Source: Octopus vulgaris (lineage: Eukaryota). Taken from it: a stretch of DNA of 64,000 bases. Below are positions 4,581 through 41,358 of the stretch, piece after piece (within the stretch, counting starts at the first letter, position 1; every line of letters starts with the position of its first letter). The DNA lies in NCBI GenBank assembly GCA_951406725.2, contig OX597816.1, positions 80,476,001-80,540,000 of the forward strand, given 5' to 3'. The position numbers and the translations under genes are program-made. Under the pieces are notes generated by a model. That model did not search any database. It was not told the origin of the DNA and saw nothing but the letters and a program-made list of their open reading frames with translations.

Positions 4581-5491
4581 ATGTCCAGAGCATGGAGACC
4601 TGACGAACTAGATTTATTCGTACGAGCCTGGAAGTGCGCCGACGGAGATAGCCCTAGCGAGGTGATTGCGGCTGCGCTGAAGAACAAAGGCTACAAGAGG
4701 ACAGCGGCTCAGATGGAGCGAAAGAGACGGGAATTCGTGCGCTCATATGCGCTTATACGGTCGCACATTGGCGCACTTGATGCCATCTTTGAGAACGAGC
4801 GGGGCAAAGATGGCAAGAATGGAGACGATGAAAGAAGTCACCCCCACCTGGTAGACGCCCGGGAGGAGGTTTTGAATGAGAAACCTGCCCGGGAAGTGAA
4901 CCCAGGAGCAAGTTCTCCAACCGGCAGCAAGGGCCATGGAGACGGAGAACCCGGTGAAGAGGTAGAGGGAGGAGGAAGAACTAAAAGAAGGGCTGGAAGA
5001 GCTAAAGGAAAAGAAAAGCTCAAGCAGGACCAAAGGGTGAAAAAACCAGGAATAGAAGTGGAACCGCAAAAGATGGAAACAAACAGCGCACACGGGTGTG
5101 TAGGTTCTACCTGAGAGGTTCCTGCTGGCATGGAAAGGAAGGTGCAGGCTGCCGCTTTGCACATCGGGGACCCTGCCACAGAGACACGAGGCAGATGGAC
5201 AAACCATCAACACAAGGAAAAGAAATGGACCACGCACCACTTGCCCCAAAGCGGAGGTACGCAGATGTTGTGCGTGCCACAAACCGCCAACATGATGTTG
5301 TCGAAAGGGCAGCTGCTGAGCAACAATCATTTTTGTGCATGGCACAAAAGATTGTACAGCAGCTGACCTGGCTTTATCAAACCCAAGCCCGCAGGTGGGA
5401 CTACCCACTATATACCAGACCACCACAGCAAACAGACCCAGGATGGACACCGCCGGCAACAACGTACACCTCACCTCGATGCTCCTACTGA
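4581..5491 (+). CDS. LINE ORF1, copy A: trihelix Myb/SANT-like domain, charged linker and CCCH zinc finger; one frameshift near 5007-5020
   Basis: N-terminus W-x3-E-L...IAAALKNKGYKRTAAQMERK matches the GT-1/Myb_DNA-bind_4-like pattern. CRFYLRGSCWHGKEGAGCRFAH is C-x7-C-x8-C-x3-H. The two track ORFs join if one A is restored in ggaaaagaaaag, and the result is collinear with copy B. Confidence 0.8.
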
Positions 5492-8346
5492 ACATCAGAG
5501 GACTGCAAACACTCAGTAACAGGACAAAGATCCCGTTCCTGAGAGACTTTGTTGCATGCAATCAAGCCTTATGCATAGCACTTACAGAAACGCACCTGAA
5601 ACCGGACATAGCAGATGCGGAGTTACACATACCACAGTATGCTGTACTACGGACCGACAGGAAAGAAAGGAGTCATGGAGGTGTTGCTATGTACATCCGG
5701 GAGGACCTCACACCCCAGGTCCTCTTGTCATACTCAAACTCGGTGTGTGACACACTAATTGTACATATTAGGCAACTTGATGTAGTTGTGTGTGCTACAT
5801 ATCGCCCTCCAGATGCCCCAAGCCATGTGGGCAAGTTTGAAGACTGCCTTATAAAAATAGAAGAAATTCTAACCACATTAGAACAACACATAGGTGTGCT
5901 TCTTATGGGAGACTTCAATCTGCCCAATGTCAGATGGCCCGAGGGCCTTTCTCTCCCAGGAATGACAAGATGTGAACGAGGACAGGCGAGGTCCCTCCTG
6001 AACCTCATCAACACCCTGTACATGGAGCAGGTAATACTCCAACCAACCAGGGCAGGTAACACACTGGATCTCTGCTTCACAAATGACATGGATCTCATCC
6101 ATAATGTGAAAGTGACACCGACACTACTCTCGGATCACAACATGATAGAGCTGACCATGTACGGGCCAAAAGAGAGCACGGACATGCAGCCTACAAGAAA
6201 CCCTCAGAATCTTTCCAGCTTGAACTACCATAAGGCAAACTGGAAACAAATTGAGAAAGAGATCCTCAAACAAAACTGGCCTAAATGTCTCTCCTCGCCA
6301 GACATCGACGTGAAACTTCAACAATTCATGTCTGTAATGCAAGCCATATGCTACAAATGTGTCCCAGAGAGAAAGGCCACTGTACACAAGAACAAAATCC
6401 CCAGAGAGAGGAAAATTTTAATGAGACGGCGTACAAAATTTTCAAATCGCCTAAACAAACAGATTGAAAGCAGTGAAAAGTCCCGCCTAAAAATAAAACT
6501 GTTGGAAATCGAAAAATGTCTGCAACTCTCCCATGAAAAAGAAAGAGCAGACAAAGAAGCCTGGGCTATAGAAAACATAAAATCTAACCCCAGAGCTTTC
6601 TACAGGTATGCCAAAGAAACAGCTACAGTGCACTGTAGAATAGGGCCACTCCTCGAAAAGGATGGCACACTTACAGGAAAACCAATGAGGGTAAGTGAAA
6701 TACTGAATGAGCAATTCAAGAGTGTTTTCACTCCACCCCTTGGGCATCTCCAAATCACCAATCCAACTGACTTTTTTACCACTGCAGATATAAAATCAGA
6801 GGCGGCGACGATAGATTACATCGATATAAAGGAAGACGATGTAACCAAGGCTATAGATGAAATGAAAACAGACTCAGCTACTGGCCCCGATGGATTCCCG
6901 GCAATCCTCCTAAAAGCATGTAAGAGAGTCCTAGCAAGACCACTGCAGTTCCTCTTTCAGAGCTTCCTTGCAGCTGGCAAACTTCCAGGAAAACTGAAGG
7001 AAGGTAAAATATGCCCCATTCATAAAGGAGGTAGCAGAGCAGAAGCCAAGAACTATAGACCTATCTCTCTGACCTCACACATCAGCAAGGTCATGGAACG
7101 AATAGTCAGAAGGAAGCTGATCACCTTCCTTGAAGAGAATGACTTGCTGCCCGACACCCAACATGGTTTCCGACCAGGGAGAAGCTGTTTAACTCAGCTC
7201 CTACAACACTATGACTGGGTGCTGAAACGGCTGCTCAACCACTCAAATGTGGAAGTGATATATCTCGACTTTGCAAAGGCCTTTGATAAAGTCGATCATG
7301 GAATGATATGTCACAAACTGCATGATCTCAACATAGTTGGAAAACTGGGAGAATGGCTTCATGACTTTCTGAAGGATAGAAGTCAGGTGGTAGTAGCCAA
7401 TGGGGCCACCTCCATTAACACACAAATAGTGAGCGGTGTTCCGCAGGGCACTGTTCTGGGACCACTACTGTTCATAATGGCCCTCTCAGACATGCCCTCA
7501 GCCACGCAGAGAGCCACGATCACAAGTTATGCAGATGATACAAAAGTTTCACAGGCAATACAGAACCCTGAGGACACTAAACACCTGCAATGTGAGCTGG
7601 ACGAAATATACAAGTGGGCTGAAAAGAATAGCATGCAGTTCAATGCTGGAAAGTTTCAAGCTTTATACTATCAGCATGCAAAACTGAATGCAATACCCAA
7701 TGAATACACTGGACCCGGAGGGATTGCAATCCCAGAGGCACAATCAGTGCGTGACCTGGGTATTCACATGAGTGATGACGCGACCTTTCATGTACATGTT
7801 GCTAAACTGACAATGAAATGTAGACGGCTGGCTGGATGGATTCTTAGAACCTTTAGAACAAGAGAACAAGAAACCATGATGGTCCTCTGGAAGACACTTG
7901 TCCTAAGCCACTTTGACTACTGCTCTCAGTTATGGTCACCATCCAGTGTCAAGTTGATCACAGAGCTCGAGGCGATCCAACGTAGATATGCAATAATATA
8001 CATCTGGAAGATCCTGGAGGGACGTGTCCTGAACTTTGGCATCGAGAGTTACGCAAATGCCAGAACTGGGCGCCACTGCGTGGTGCCTAGGACTCCAAAC
8101 CTGCCATCAAGATGTAGGACAAGATTCTGTGATAGCCTGGGCTTCCGAGGCCCACAGCTCTTCAATATCCTCCCGAAGAACCTGAGAGACCTGCATGGGG
8201 TGGATACAGATGTCTTTAAAATGAAGCTGGATCTCTTCCTGTCAGGTGTCCCAGATGAACCAACTTCACGGCAGGAGGGGCAGATGAGGGCAGCTGCATC
8301 GAACTCTCTCATGCACCAAATAGCAGTTGCTAGAAAGCCTCCATGA
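5443..8346 (+). CDS. LINE ORF2, copy A: AP endonuclease plus reverse transcriptase, with an in-frame 93-nt deletion near the C-terminus
   Basis: APE motifs LNIRGL, LTETHL, YRPP, GDFN, LDL, SDH. RT motifs [41 protein letters not shown]. First ATG at 5443; the track start at 5335 is GTG. Confidence 0.95.
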
Positions 8347-12325: not shown

Positions 12326-15321
12326 TCATGGAGGCTTTCTAGCAACTGCTATTTGGTGCATGAGAGAGTTCGATGCAGCTGCCCTCATCTGCCCCTCCTG
12401 CCGTGAAGTTGGTTCATCTGGGACACCTGACAGGAAGAGATCCAGCTCCATTTTAAAGACATCTGTATCCACCCCATGCAGGTCTCTCAGGTTCATCGGG
12501 AGGATATTGAAGAGCTGTGGGCCTCGGAAGCCCAGGCTATCACAGAATCTTGTCCTACATCTTGATGGCAAGTTTGGAGTCCTAGGCACCACGCAGTGGC
12601 GCCCAGGTCTGGCGTTTGCGTAACTCTCGATGCCACAGTTCAGGACACTTCCCTCCAGGATCTTCCAGATGTATATTATGGCATATCTTTCCCGCCTACG
12701 CTCCAGGGAATATAATTTTAATCTCTTGAGTCTTTCCCAGTAGCTTACATTCTGCATAGAGGCTATCTTCTTCGTGTAGCTTCGTTGGATCGCCTCAAGT
12801 TCTGTGATCAACTTGACACTGGATGGTGACCATAGCTGAGAGCAATAGTCAAAGTGACTTAGGACAAGTGTCTTCCAGAGGACCATCATGGTTTCTTGTT
12901 CTCTTGTTCTAAAGGTTCTAAGAATCCAGCCAGCCAGCCGTCTGCATTTCATTGTCAGTTTAGCAACATGTACATGAAAGGTCGCGTCATCAGTCATGTG
13001 AATACCCAGGTCACGCACTGATTGTGCCTCTGGGATTGCAATCCCTCCGGGTCCAGTGTATTCCTTGGGTATTGCATTCAGTTTTGCATGCTGATAGTAT
13101 AAAGCTTGAAACTTTTCAGCATTGAACTGCATGCTATTCTTTTCAGCCCACTTGTATATTTCGTCCAGCTCATATTGCAGGTGCCTAGTGTCTTCAGGGT
13201 TCTGTATTGCCTGTGAAACTTTTGTATCATCTGCATAACTTGTGATCGTGGCTCTCCGCGTGGCTGAGGGCATGTCTGAGAGGGCCATTATGAACAGTAG
13301 TGGTCCCAAAACAGTGCCCTGTGGAACACCGCTCACTATTTGCGTGCTAATGGAAGTGGCCCCATTGGCTACTACCACCTGACTTCTATTCTTCAGAAAG
13401 TCGTGAAGCCATTCTCCTAGTTTTCCAACTATGCCAAGATCACGCAGTTTGTGACATATCATTCCATGATCGACTTTATCGAAGGCCTTTGCGAAGTCGA
13501 GATATATCACTTCCACATTTGAGTGGTTGAGCAGTTGTTTCAGCACCCAGTCATAGTGCTGCAGGAGCTGAGTTAAGCAGCTTCTTCCTGGTCGGAAACC
13601 ATGTTGGGTGTCAGGCAGCAAGTCATTTTCTTCAAGGAAGGTGATTAGTTTCCTTCTGACTATTCGTTCCATGACCTTGCTGATGTGTGAGGTCAGAGAG
13701 ATAGGTCTGTAGTTCTTGGCCTCCGCTCTGCTACCTCCTTTATGAATAGGGCATATTTTACCTTCCTTCAGTTTTCTTGGAAGTTTGCCAGCTGCAAGGA
13801 AGCTCTGAAAGAGGAACTGCAGTGGTCTTGCTAAGACTCTCTTACATACTTTTAGGAGGATTGCCGGGAATCCATCGGGGCCAATAGCTGAGTCTATTTT
13901 CATTTCATCTATAGCCTTTATTACATCGTCTTCCTTTATATCGATGTAATTTAACGTCGCCGCCTCTGATTCTATATCTGCAGTGGTAAAAAAGTCAGTT
14001 GGATTGCTGATTTGGAAATGCCCAAGGGGTGGAGTTAAAACACTCTTGAATTGTTCATTCAGTATTTCACTTACCCTCATTGGTTTTCCTGTGAGTGTGC
14101 CATCCTTTTCAAGGAGTGGCCCTATCCTACAGTGCACCGTAGCTGTTTCTTTGGCATACCTGTAGAAAGCTCTGGGGTTAGTTTTTATGTTGTCTATAGC
14201 CCAGGCTTCTTTGTCTGCTCTATCCTTCTCATGGGAGAGTTGCAGACAATTTTCAATTTCCAACAGTTTTATTTTCAGGCGGGACTTTTCACTGCTTTCA
14301 ATTTGTTTGTTTAGGCGATTTGAGATTTTTGTGCGCCGTCTCATTAAAATTTTTCTCTCTCTGGGGATTTTGTTCTTGTGTACAGTGGCCTTTCTCTCTG
14401 GGACACATTTGTAGCATATGGATTGCATTACGGACATGAATTGTTGAAGTATCATGTCGATGTCCGGCGAGGAGAGACATTCAGGCCAGTTTTGTTTGAG
14501 GATCTCTTTCTCAATTTGTTTCCAGTTTGCCTTATTGAAGTTCAAGCTGGAAAGATTCTGAGGGTTTCTTGTAGGCTGCATGTCCGTGCTCTCTTTTGAC
14601 CCGTACATGGTCAGCTCTACCATGTTGTGATCCGAGAGTAGTGTCGGTGTCACTTTCACATTATGGATGAGATCCATATTATTTGTGAAGCAGAGATCCA
14701 GTGTGTTACCCGCTCTGGTTGGTTGGAGTATTACTTGCTCCATGTACAGGGTGTTGGTAAGGTTCAGGAGGGACCTCGCCTGTCCTCGTTCACATCTTGT
14801 CATTCCTGGGAGAGAAAGGCCCTCGGGCCATCTGACATTCGGTAGATTGAAGTCTCCCATGAGAAGTACACTTATGTGTTGTTCTAATGTGGTTAGAACT
14901 TCTTCTATTTTTAAAAGGCAGTCCTCAAACTTGCCCATATGACTTGGGGCATCTGGAGGGCGATATGTAGCACACACAACTACATCAAGTTGCCTTATGT
15001 GTACAATTAGTGTGTCACACACCGAGTTTGAGTATGACAAAAGGACCTGGGGTTTGAGGTCCCCACGGATGTACATAGCAACTCCTCCATGACTTCTTTC
15101 TTTCCTGTCGGTCCGTAGTACAACATACTGTGGTATGTGTAATTCCGCATCTGCTATGTCCGGTTTCAGATGCGTTTCTGTGAGTGCTATGCATAGGCTT
15201 GATTGCATGCGACAAAGTCTCTCAGGAACGGGACTTTTGTCCTGTTACTGAGTGTTTGCAGTCCTCTGATGTTCAGTAGGAGCATCGAGGTGAGGTGTAC
15301 GTTGTTGCCGGCGGTGTCCAT
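12326..15321 (-). pseudogene. LINE ORF2, copy B (APE+RT), complete length but with a 1-nt deletion near 15193
   Basis: Nearly identical to copy A ORF2. Copy A gccttatgc versus copy B gcctatgc splits it into the 80-aa and 960-aa track ORFs. It retains YWERLKRLKLYSLERRRER. Confidence 0.9.
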
Positions 15322-36416: not shown

Positions 36417-36687
<271 letters not shown>

Positions 36688-36926
36688 CCTTTCTACTATA
36701 GGCACATGGCCTGAAATTTGGCGGGAGGGGGCCAGTCGATCAGATCGACCCCAGTACGCAAGTGGTACTTAATTTATTGACCCACGGAAGGATGAAAGAC
36801 AAAGTCGACCTCGGCGGAATTTGAGTTCAGAACGTAGGGACATACGAAACACTGCTAAGTATTACACCCCGCGTGCTAACGATTCTGCCAGCTCGCCGCC
36901 TGAGTAATAATAATAATAATAATTAT

Positions 36927-36977
<51 letters not shown>

Positions 36978-37181
36978 CATTTCTACTATAGGCACAAGGC
37001 CTGAAATTTATTGGGTGGGGACTAGTCGATATTATCGACTCCAATGTTTGACTCAATGTACCGACCCGAAAGGATGAAAAGTAAAGTCGACCTCGGCGGA
37101 ATTTGAAGTCAGACCATAGTGACGGGCGAAATACCGCGAAGCATTTCCTCCAAGGTGCTAACGATTCTGCCATCTCGCCGT
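36688..37181 (-). mobile_element. Two tandem family-1 SINEs (36688-36900 and 36978-37181) separated by (AAT)n
   Basis: Both read ttctactataggcac...aaggatgaaa...aaagtcgacctcggcggaatttga...gctaacgattctgcca.ctcgccg. Confidence 0.9.
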
Positions 37182-37184
37182 CTG

Positions 37185-37683: not shown

Positions 37684-40534
37684 ATGGTCACTCAACCTAC
37701 TAGAAATCACAACTAAATCCTTGCTAAATTAAAACAAACTATTGAAAAGAAGCGTTTTATTCACAGTTAGAATAATGCCTTAAAACCTTGGCATCCTCAA
37801 TTGGTGTTGACCTGGGTCTGTTCATAGTTTTAACTATAAATGTTATTACGGTCAAATTTTATTTCGCCGATTTCGAGCCCATAACGTTAGTCCATCACCT
37901 AACGTAGAAACAGTGATGTGTTTGCTTACCCTGAAAAACAATGCAAATTTAAACAATTGTGAAAATATATAATTTATTAAAGATCAAAAGGTTGTGAAAA
38001 TCGTTAGAGCTTTTAAAATAAAAATAACTTGCAGTATTTGTAGTTATTTACGTTCTATGGTTTTCGAATCGGACCTGAATGCGTCGGCGGAAGTAACAAC
38101 ATTTTCAATATAGGAAATAGCTGTCACGACTATAAAGTATGTATGTATGTATGTATGTATGTATGTATGTATGTATGTATGTATGTATGTATGAACGTAT
38201 GTATGTAGGCATGTGTGAATGTATTTATGTGTATGTATGTACGCGTGCAAGCATGAATGTATTTATGTGTATGTAGACATGCATGAATGTATGCATGTAT
38301 GTATGCATGTATGTCTGAATGTATTTATGTATGCATGCAGGCATACAGGTATGTATGTATGTATGTACTATGTACGTATGCATGTATGTTTGTGTGTATT
38401 AATCAGTTTTAAATCTACATAAGTGATTCAAAGGGCCGAGAGTTCATGCTCTTATCTGACTTCCTTCTCTGATTATCTTTTTCTCTTTCTCTCCCCCACT
38501 CTTATTTTCTACTTATCTGTCTATCTATTGATCTCTCTCTCTATCTATACAACTGTGTATGTGTGTGCGTGTGAGCGCGCGCGTGTGTCTATGCGTAATG
38601 TAAATAGTAAGGCTTAACTTTTTAAATGCATAATCTTTGGTGTGGTGTTGTGAATTTGTCGTTGTGTATTTGTTTTTTATCCTGATTTGCACAATCTACT
38701 CTGTTTGCTTAAAATATGGATATTGCGTTACGGCTACAAAAAGAATCGCATCACCATTTGAGATACATTCTTGGAAACGGTTGGAAATATTATACATTTG
38801 ATGGAGGTTGGTTTGTTTGATGGATGACTGGATGACTTACGGGAATAGTTGAAACAGTCTAGGAATTGCATTCCTAAAAAAGCCTACATAATATGTGTAC
38901 ACCCTCAAGTGAGAAAGTATCATATGGATTACGGAAGACATTGTATTATATATTTATTTTATGTCAGGATCTCCAAAACATTCAACAGCGTAAATGCAGA
39001 AATTCAATGGATTTTTCTATATCTTACCTCATTGTTTTCTATGATTTCAGCTTGTATTTTTACGCATGAATACTTGGGCGAGAGATCTAACACAAATGAG
39101 TGAACAGTGAGGCGAGTGAAAAATTAAGCTGAGATTCATATCATGTCAACAAAACATACCATTATCAACGATACAGATATTTTCTGTCATTGAAGTCAAC
39201 AAAAATATTAAATATATATTTTTAATTACTGGTTGATAGCAGTATATTATGAAAACATGATTTTTGGATTAATAACACGTTCATTATAATATTTATATTA
39301 CTACTTTCATCATTTTTCTTTTGATAAATTTAATGTAACTGTGGTTTTATAGCATTTAGATAACAAGCGAATTGCTCGTAAACTATATTAATTAAGTCTA
39401 TAAATTATTGCTCAGTTAAGTCATAAATAAACTCATGTGAGATTTCATATAACTTATAGTGTAATTAAAATCGCTTTTTAATTATTCAAGTCAATGCAAA
39501 TAACTTTCTATATTAGATGACATTTTATTACCTCCAAATACAAATTCTATAAATTGCATTGCCCTCAACCAAGTGTTATATAATGGTTTAGAGACGTGAA
39601 TGCAAATTTAATTGTAAAAAGAAGACGTGTAATACTCAAAATCCACGTTCAAATTTTATCTAAAGAAAAGCACATAACTTACAACATTATTTCTCTCTTT
39701 GTGAGAGTAAACCTCTCTCATAATAAATTCTCTAAACACACTCTGTTCATTTAGGCTATCGCTAAATAGCTCTCATTGAAGTTTCCATTACCGATATCGT
39801 TGAATAGCTCCCATATTAATATTGAAAATTTACATAATGAGGGTGGGGAAGGATTTTAAACACACACAAATTCTATTGTGTGGAATGTATACATGTGTAT
39901 ATGTTTTGGCTTTAATGTATACCTACACATATGCGTGAATGAATATTCAGATTGACAATCCATCAGCAGAAAGTCACAGAGGAGCTATATATCTAGAAGT
40001 GTATAAGATCAAGTATATAAGTGTTTATGTGACGTGTGCATGTGTGTGTGTGTGTGTTTCAGTAAGGCAAATACATATAAATGCTTTACACACTTCTCTG
40101 CCTTTTCTCAGAACCTCGATAAAAAGTTATATCAGCAAAGATTTCGACCGAACTAACTTGCTTGCCTTTGACTCTTTTCATCTCCTGGGTAAGACGCTTT
40201 CTGCTAGTTCGTTCCATCACAACGTGCAGTGACAGATAAACTGCAATATAGATTCTGTCAGTTTTGGTGTTCATTAAAATTCAAAATAATTCCACAGATT
40301 TTTCTATACATTCTCATTTTCTATACATTCTCTTCCTGCAATTCATTTACCCCACGAGCGGTAATCGTAAAAAAATAATAATAAAATAAAAGTGTACCGA
40401 TTTTACCGACCTGAAAAAGAGCTACAAATGACATGGAACACTATCTCACTCTTCTGAATCTTTAATGTTCCCTGCACACACATCGAATATCGGACATGAA
40501 GTCAATAAAACAGAAATATTGGTGTCAAATCTGT

Positions 40535-40700
40535 TGGCACAAGGCCAGTAAGTTTGGGGGGTGTAAATAATTTAATTACACAGAACCCAGTCCTCAACTG
40601 GCACTTATTTCATCGATTCTGATTGATGAAAGGCAAAGTCGACCTCTGAGGAATTTAAGCACAGAAAATATGCTGGTGGTTCTGTTAGCTCGCCGCCTTC
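40535..40700 (-). mobile_element. Degraded family-1 SINE
   Basis: ttggcacaaggccag...gatgaaaggcaaagtcgacctc...agctcgccgcc. Confidence 0.7.
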
Positions 40701-40852
40701 AAGCATAAAAAAAACCAATAAATTAGTAGAACAGATACACGACGAAAAATAACATCACTAGGTGAGACAAGCTGACACTGAATTAGCTTCGCTGATTGAC
40801 AGATGACGGTATCGTTTAGAGAATGCCCCTCTCCGAAAGAGGGAGAGGGGCG

Positions 40853-40915
40853 CCACGTCAAAACGGTAGAGGAGTAGGGGCTGAAACCGGACGTGGTTCC
40901 TCCTGATGATGCCTT
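40853..40915 (+). ncRNA. Candidate hammerhead ribozyme with non-circularly permuted strand order
   Basis: CGGUA-GAGGAG (40864-74), GGGGCU-GAAA-CCG (40877-89) and UUCCUC-CUGAUGA-UGCCUU (40897-915) give the full core and complementarity for helices I, II and III. Confidence 0.4.
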
Positions 40916-41358
40916 GGGCTAACTGGATTCTATAAAGGAGCTGTTGTGGTAGCAGACCACGAAACACGGTTGAAATTCCTCCTGAGGCCAAGCCGACAGC
41001 GTATATACAAATGTGTAAACGACAAAGCCTTTTGTCGTTGATTTCCTTTCTAGCTATTCTCTTTTACTTAGTCTTCTAACCTTAATAGGATAGATATGAA
41101 CGTCATCGTACATACTGCAACCAAAATAAAACTCAACAGAGATTATCAGCGTTTATGCATACCACTGATCAAACTAAATGCCAACCACTATCATTGTACT
41201 TGTGCCTAGGATACCTAAATATCTAGATGTATAGAAAGATAAACAAAACAGAATAGCTTGATGCGTGTATATATGTGTGTGTGTCTGTGTCATAAATTTA
41301 TGCGTGTATACATATATATATGTGTGTGGGTGTGTCAGGGTCTCTGTGAATATACAAA

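Follow-up and report, generated by a model that had tools for sequence, protein, structure and literature searches.

A hammerhead core in S-G-C order within an abundant octopus repeat, predicted to be opened between A9 and G10.1 by a four-way junction

The feature at positions 40853-40915 of the window, the 64,000-nucleotide stretch of the Octopus vulgaris genome analysed here, is real, and the data on the repeat family that carries it take away any doubt. We consider it probable that the locus is a truncated and internally deleted copy of a very abundant repeat. This repeat is likely a non-autonomous derivative of a Naiad-type Penelope-like retroelement, or the 3' end of such an element. In this model, the majority form of the repeat has all hammerhead core letters in the order S-G-C, a predicted helix II strand upstream of the core, and a four-way junction in place of the link between A9 and G10.1. 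Intact copies would cut after the GUA triplet (after 40868), and the copy in the window is probably impaired.

All strands of the core lie on the + strand. The 5' strand of a contact helix (CCACGUC, 40853-59) comes first and forms 7 bp with GACGUGG at 40890-96 (pair probability 0.91); it is followed by AAAA (40860-63) and block S (40864..40874). This block consists of the helix III strand CGGU (40864-67), H17 (A40868) and the helix I strand GAGGAG (40869-74), contains the GUA triplet (40866-68) with the predicted cut after 40868, and is without any variant at or above 2% in contigs of four sequencing runs. A linker of two nucleotides, UA (40875..40876), leads from helix I to helix II and thus to block G (40877..40889), in which the helix II strand GGGGCU (40877-82) is followed by GAAA (40883-86) and the helix III strand ACCG (40886-89). 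The 3' strand of the contact helix (40890..40896) comes next, with zero spacer to helix III on one side and to helix I on the other. It is followed by the helix I strand UUCCUC (40897-902) and the core word CUGAUGA (40903-09; C3-A9), and this stretch (40897..40909) also has no variant at or above 2%. UGCCUU (40910-15) stands at the end; the stretch 40910..40919 is the predicted 3' strand of helix IV in the family and the helix II strand of the original prediction. Read from 5' to 3', the core words thus appear in the order S-G-C (cut site, GAAA, CUGAnGA), with helix I (6 bp) and helix III (4 bp) on either side of the cut site. The core letters C3-A9 (CUGAnGA), G12-A14, A15.1-U16.1 and H17 are all present, and the family has no majority change at any of them. 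The original prediction, made from the letters of the window, had placed each of these strands correctly, and all pairings that it listed are possible in the window copy; indexing of the strands also bears out its GUA site and its helices I and III. Its 2-nt linker from helix I to helix II is in keeping with type SGC hammerheads, in which this linker is short as well, typically 3 nt (PMC10085705).

A descriptor covering all six orders of the blocks, applied to both strands of the 64-kb window with its 26 CUGAnGA sites, gave one match, in the order S-G-C, and none in 60 shuffles; the non-circularly permuted core of the original prediction is therefore the sole match of this descriptor in the window. 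Among 1500 dinucleotide-preserving shuffles, the core with a helix I of at least 5 bp and a helix III of at least 4 bp arose in 40, and the core, helices I and III plus a downstream helix II of at least 5 bp in 0, a null that is generous to the finding because the descriptor thresholds were chosen with the site already seen. The canonical circular order C-G-S had no match to the descriptor in the window and no Rfam hammerhead. At gathering score, Rfam had no match anywhere in the window; at E<=10, six weak matches were returned for 40300-41300, none of them a hammerhead. A pattern scan of metagenomes returned 24 loci, all of them chance matches and none (0/24) with an S-G-C core, and the scan returned 0 in viral contigs and 0 in prokaryote genomes. 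Single-strand folding of 40853-40915 had no significance (z-score 0.45) and did not show the pseudoknotted fold. The nested folding model gave a pair probability of 0.0 for helix I and for the originally proposed helix II because such a model cannot represent these pseudoknot helices.

It is hardly credible that the element arose by chance, or that it belongs to the HDV-like or twister class with words that resemble hammerhead blocks. GGGCUAA followed by CUGG has what we take to be a resemblance to J4/2-P2 of HDV-like ribozymes. By eye, there is no P3/L3 or P1.1 fit and no twister CAAG block or P2 partner, and Rfam finds neither class. GGUAGAGGA fits one twister block in the supplement of PMC10085705. 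Against chance stand the 0 of 1500 shuffles and the covariation of the hammerhead helices across phyla described below.

The core is carried by one copy of a high-copy interspersed repeat (40746..40983, + strand), which is delimited by word depth and by loose ends before 40747 and behind 40979-83. The summed contig word depth is 10^5-10^6 over 40855-40975 and 5-60 in the flanks, and the repeat thus lies ~10^4-fold over its single-copy flanks, a ratio that gives an order of size only and no copy number. The stretch examined, or part of it, is contained in 20 of the 24 listed sequencing runs (12 studies), and the letters of the family were taken from contigs of six of them (X1, X2, X3, X9, X11, X15). 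X11 contains contigs of the repeat family and is by guess an RNA run, as are X14 and X17-19; contigs show neither strand nor RNA ends. X20, in which the share was small and which is labelled insect metagenome, was left out of the evidence. Over 40853-40980, the family majority differs from the window at four places: C40882 (93-98% of depth in the six runs), U40912 (98-99% in X1, X2, X3 and X9), and A40917 and C40929 (98% or more in the same four runs). The other family variants at or above 2-3% are nearly all at CpG sites, and no covariation was seen inside the repeat family among variants at or above 2% in contigs. Within the window, neither blastn nor the descriptor found further copies of the repeat, and two 12-letter matches fall inside LINE open reading frames (ORFs).

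The part of the family upstream of the core is known from 30-letter consensi of loose ends with an agreement of 0.53-0.96, which are leads and not whole copies. In 6/6 runs, the loose ends before 40851 finish in GGGCCC, which together with C40851 reads GGCCCC. The majority letter C40882 turns the helix II strand into GGGGCC and thereby provides the canonical C11.1 before GAAA. GGCCCC/GGGGCC would form an upstream helix II of 6 bp and -12.5 kcal/mol that in the family majority is closed by G10.1-C11.1; this pair is absent from the window copy, which has U40882 and a strand down to 3 bp. Directly 5' of the upstream helix II strand, the loose ends of X2, X9, X11 and X15 contain hairpin V, CC(U/A)CC-GAAA-GG(G/A)GG, with 5 bp and a GAAA loop and, directly 5' of this hairpin, GAAGACA. 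The GAAGACA side can pair with the majority strand that follows A9 (UGUCUU...) in a helix IV of up to 10 bp, and the majority letters U40912 and A40917 both improve the pairing of this helix with the upstream loose-end motif GCUGAAGACA.

The family strands would thus run in the order helix IV 5' strand, hairpin V, helix II strand (beginning with G10.1), contact helix, S block, 2-nt linker, G block, contact helix, helix I strand with CUGAUGA, and helix IV 3' strand. The model predicts that in the family the link between A9 and G10.1 is replaced by a four-way junction without an unpaired base. In the family, the contact helix (40853-59/40890-96) comes after the upstream helix II strand and before the helix I strand, and connects helices I and II at their free ends. 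The original prediction had taken CCACGUC/GACGUGG for an extension of helix III; the pairing holds, but it is best read as the helix that makes the contact between stems I and II (called 'I' by Eckert et al., PMC10085705). The family fold would be the same circle of strands as in types SGC and CSG, opened where these authors assumed that no opening is possible. All helices are formed within one copy, and the assembly in trans or as a dimer that had been named as an alternative to a pseudoknot is not a requirement.

The strand right after CUGAUGA had originally been assigned to helix II, and in that reading the element would be a true type SGC hammerhead, of which at least the window copy, deprived of its upstream strands, would refold and cut itself. 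This helix is indeed possible in the window copy, with 3 G-C and 2 G-U pairs after a U-U, of which C40912 adds one G-C; as the helix II of the family it is improbable, because it depends on minority letters. C40912 accounts for ~1% of depth and U40882 for 2-7%, and with the majority letters the same register has only -3.0 kcal/mol, compared with -12.5 for the upstream duplex, and leaves U-C at 10.1-11.1. The energies of the window copy speak for the downstream strand (-6.1 kcal/mol versus -2.9 for the upstream remnant, which is itself locked in a hairpin of -22), the nested fold keeps the helix I and II strands free for pseudoknots, and 0 of the 1500 shuffles match the arrangement. A U-U at 10.1-11.1 also occurs in predicted Hydra Penelope hammerheads (File S2, PMC8557442). 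In this register, however, the free ends of helices I and II are no longer connected by the contact helix, and SGC-3 ceased to cleave when that contact was broken (PMC10085705). The fold of the window copy also fails the descriptors of Eckert et al., which demand G10.1-C11.1, and among the Naiad passages described below it is supported by 0 of 5 lineages. We therefore regard this reading as unlikely and continue with the upstream helix II.

The copy in the window is a damaged one. It is 5'-truncated, because the family continues upstream of 40746, and it has an internal deletion point at 40826..40827 (+ strand). Around this point the family contigs give two loose-end consensi of 30 letters, one behind 40826 and the other before 40831; they do not overlap, and the window contains neither. 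The deletion removes at least ~56 family bases, the 5' strand of helix IV among them. At this place lies a copy-specific, perfect inverted repeat (40825..40851, + strand), a 10-bp hairpin of -22 kcal/mol with a pair probability of 0.998, which has absorbed the family hairpin V (~40831-46) and the upstream helix II remnant (40847-51); of the upstream helix II strand, a 3-bp remnant is left. U40882 at position 11.1 is a C-to-U change at a CpG. Without helix IV and with only a remnant of the upstream helix II strand, the window copy is probably impaired. A weak true-SGC fold is possible in this copy according to the energies given above; we expect little or no activity and put clear cleavage at about one chance in five. 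As a damaged relic, the window copy matters only as a pointer to its family. In X1 and X2, one contig each of single-copy depth bridges the deletion point with other letters and with gaps in the hairpin; the perfect hairpin may be specific to one allele, or the deletion may be common to other copies.

Naiads have been reported to be without canonical hammerheads, and their 'HHR_core' and 'HHR_half_core' motifs to fit no descriptor (Craig, Yushenova, Rodriguez and Arkhipova 2021, PMC8557442). We compared the family by eye with passages of File S5 of that paper, which holds 54 consensus records, and these passages were found with the core words. The opened fold, with compensatory changes, is present in 8/54 records from five animal lineages, and a clean type CSG with an unbroken A9-G10.1 link in 6/54; because of the way in which the passages were found, these 14 of 54 are a selected count and no survey. 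About eight more records have core words and no clean fit (Esco, Skow-2, Ppla, Ptep, two Darwinula and two part-17 records). In Naiad_Plae, blocks S, G and C are near letter-identical to those of the family, the upstream strand reads GGCCCC, and the 7-bp contact helix is changed on both sides in 5/7 pairs, with a V of 8 bp and a IV of 5 bp. The Acropora Naiads (Amil, Anas, Aacu) have II as GGCUCC/GGAGCC, I as UAGGAU/AUCCUA, a III of 13 bp, a V of 6 bp and a IV of 8 bp, with one mismatch in helix II and one in helix I in Aacu. The EuTe Naiad, assigned by file order, has II as GACGCC/GGCGUC, a V of 8 bp and a IV of 4 bp; Naiad_Obim and Naiad_Ovul have II as GACACC/GGUGUC, a V of 9 bp with 1 mismatch and a IV of 3 bp; and the Bfor Naiad has 6 bp in II, 6 bp in V, 3 bp in IV and only 2 bp in helix I.

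Three properties are shared by 5/5 of these opened-form lineages, as far as the passages go. The upstream strand starts with a G that faces the C before GAAA (G10.1-C11.1); the strand after CUGAUGA cannot pair in the originally proposed register and the upstream strand can; and there are zero unpaired bases where II, V and IV meet. The linker between helices I and II is 1-5 nt in these Naiads, and the opened forms occupy the 3' untranslated end of the consensi. Thus, the opened fold is likely the missing ribozyme of Naiads, as judged from the letters of these consensi. The type-CSG records are Nbra-1, -2 and -3, Hcon (by file order), Hpol and a part-16 record with one extra U, all with four helices and a long contact helix. 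The nematode Naiad 3' ends carry clean type CSG in the layout of the tested CSG-1/2 of Eckert et al., and their spacers exceed the limit of 10 nt set in the published descriptor; this could be a reason why they were missed. The window family resembles Naiads in its core blocks and helix layout, near-identical at the motif level to those of Naiad_Plae, and in the 5' truncation and very high copy number that are typical of Naiads. By contrast, the octopus Naiads Naiad_Obim and Naiad_Ovul have other helix sequences, and the window family is neither of them. There is no endonuclease or reverse transcriptase ORF (GIY-YIG, CxC, RT) beside the 238-bp window copy, and the Naiad label of the family is one of motif because no reverse transcriptase gene is linked to the family. 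The near letter-identity of blocks S, G and C between the window and the acanthocephalan Naiad_Plae, in which the outer helices differ with compensation, would fit either a strong constraint on the helix sequence or horizontal transfer.

The known hammerheads of non-circular order, type SGC (HRIMA-1 and variants) and type CSG, were described by Eckert, Friedrich, Weinberg and Weinberg (2023, PMC10085705). Both types cleave in vitro and depend on a fourth helix between the free ends of helices I and II; a zero-nucleotide link between contact helix and helix III is found in some SGC and in CSG. All 583 SGC sequences came from metatranscriptomes and none from genomes of known organisms, and CSG was known from two soil-metagenome sequences only (CSG-1 and CSG-2). 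The A9-G10.1 link was assumed to be unbroken, with at most one or two inserted bases reported. The window family shares with type SGC the S-G-C order, the short I-II linker, the fourth helix, the zero-base link to helix III and all conserved core letters. However, in the predicted family fold block C is split, with its helix II strand moved upstream and helices IV and V in the space between, whereas type SGC ends at helix III and the contact helix and has CUGAnGA joined to the helix II strand; moreover, SGC is metatranscriptomic and the family is a high-copy animal repeat. The family would work like SGC but, with block C split, is not filed as SGC. With type CSG the family has the strand circle and the four helices in common; in CSG, by contrast, the opening lies between the contact helix and helix III, and A9-G10.1 is intact. 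The minimal type I hammerheads of Penelope/Poseidon-type elements and of animal retrozymes have the canonical order and little or no helix III and are weakly active as dimers (PMC4209133; bioRxiv 10.64898/2026.07.22.740005). They, too, are located at a terminal repeat of a Penelope-like element, with a proposed cutting of tandem precursors, whereas the window family has all helices within one copy. The literature covered, mostly open access (including passages of PMC13725137, PMC10162972, PMC6155905 and the animal retrozyme preprint), contains no hammerheads in Naiads, no helix insertion at A9-G10.1 and no non-circular hammerheads in animal genomes.

These comparisons bear on two further explanations. 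One is a hammerhead of canonical order or of dimeric form, built with the GAAA at 40961-64, with blocks of tandem copies, or as the decayed type III at 40988-41001 that had been offered originally as an alternative. The family does contain a second C-GAAA-C after a 5-bp hairpin (hairpin and GAAA at 40946..40964, + strand; found by sequence and folding), and Penelope-like elements form tandems and dimeric hammerheads (PMC4209133). However, this GAAA gives no canonical hammerhead with 40897-909: helices I and III would have 2 bp each, with ~35 nt between A9 and helix II. The canonical order had no descriptor match in the window, and 40988-41001 is single-copy flank past the repeat end at ~40979-83 and is without GAAA, so that the decayed type III has to be given up. 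The compensatory changes in Naiads tie strands together within one copy, and the Naiad passages are without a second GAAA. We judge an origin of this kind very unlikely.

The other explanation is a conserved fold without self-cleavage, derived from a hammerhead and dependent on a protein or a partner copy, or acting as a binding or priming signal for reverse transcriptase, which we consider improbable. The genomic copies span the site uncut, the junction at A9-G10.1 is a prediction, the papers covered show no hammerhead that tolerates helices there, and minimal animal Penelope-like hammerheads cleave poorly in vitro with other functions not excluded (PMC4209133). On the other hand, the catalytic letters, an NUH triplet (GUA, GUC, UUC or GUU) and G10.1-C11.1 are kept across five phyla in the Naiad passages while the helices covary, and the CSG relatives share the layout of ribozymes that cleave. 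A self-cleaving opened hammerhead is the reading that we prefer.

In the proposed fold, helix II would stay stacked on the A9-G12 pair via the unbroken strand from 11.1 to G12, and helix V would stack on helix IV via the unbroken IV-V strand. The strands from A9 to IV and from V to G10.1 would cross over as in a stacked four-way junction and hold A9 and G10.1 in their usual places. This stacked geometry would account for the lack of unpaired bases in the five lineages and the window family. The metal site of hammerheads consists of the A9 phosphate and the N7 of G10.1; because it does not use the broken A9-G10.1 link, it would account for the constant G10.1. In hammerheads, A9 and G12 form a sheared pair, and G12 acts as base and G8 as acid (PMC2553840); the two residues would have the same functions here. 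The cut after GUA would leave a 2',3'-cyclic phosphate and a 5'-OH. Helix IV would form last, and cutting would therefore be held back until transcription of the motif is complete.

For other Penelope-like hammerheads, the proposed role is that tandem precursors are cut into units, which are perhaps circularised (PMC4209133). By analogy, read-through, head-to-tail transcripts of the element would be cut into unit RNAs. Copies of the family reach across the predicted cut site, which is intact in them, and have their end ~112 nt beyond it; the inserted cDNA would thus have come from uncut, re-joined or circular RNA, and these copies fit the proposed processing role without showing it. As regards the pseudo-LTRs and the partial tandem or inverted insertions of Naiads, a few joints lead from the 3' end back into the element (X1, X2, X3, X9; direction ambiguous), and the window copy is solitary.

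We lean slightly towards the view that the fold is a seventh hammerhead topology, in which the core is interrupted between A9 and G10.1 and restored by a perfect four-way junction, that it is active, and that Naiads from ctenophores to octopus have this fold and type CSG as their standard ribozyme. If so, non-circularly permuted hammerheads would not be rare environmental oddities, since animal genomes would contain tens of thousands of them, and these would be the first in genomes of known animals. CSG, SGC and the opened forms would be one circle cut at different places, as tandem retroelements are able to do, and the explicit assumption of the six-permutation scheme that block C cannot be split would be broken. 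The reported absence of hammerheads from Naiads would be explained, and the purpose of ribozymes in Penelope-like elements would become testable in one more clade. Finally, the natural insertion point at A9-G10.1 would offer a new place for attaching regulatory domains to hammerheads.

Several features of the repeat lie outside the core. The 5' family segment (40746..40826, + strand) is non-coding as far as seen; many contigs align to it and then continue with another sequence, on which they agree (agreement 0.89-1.0). What we take to be a CCAAT-like word lies within it at 40792-40802, and a further CCAAT-like word is found in the family segment that is deleted from the window copy. A TATAAA word at 40931..40936 (+ strand) is without majority change in the family and is a possible promoter element of a pseudo-LTR. 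Together, these words hint that the repeat contains a promoter for RNA polymerase II, from which transcripts would start near the 3' end. The ribozyme-bearing 3' part (40855-40975) is ~6-fold (X2) to 200-fold (X15) deeper than 40746-40826, an excess that would reflect either frequent 5' truncation or several subfamilies that share the ribozyme end. The 3' end of the family, at 40976-40985, repeats part of the helix I strand (a 10-nt match to 40897-906 in the window copy) and, judged by this match, could compete for the GAGGAG strand and switch the predicted ribozyme off.

The window as a whole is animal DNA rich in microsatellites, and it also contains SINE-like repeats and two LINE ORFs. The latter are long and near-identical (5320-8346, +; 12326-15244, -), contain endonuclease and reverse-transcriptase domains of the LINE type, and face each other, with simple repeats between them. 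Several copies of a repeat of SINE-like character lie at 19157-76, 25507-54, 30489-865, 36791-901, 37073-104 and 40600-40700, and one such copy ends ~45 bp upstream of the ribozyme repeat. A 290-bp tandem of the SINE-like repeat with (TAA)n lies at 36615-37184, and a perfect 9-bp hairpin is located at 41018-41039 in the single-copy flank just past the repeat.
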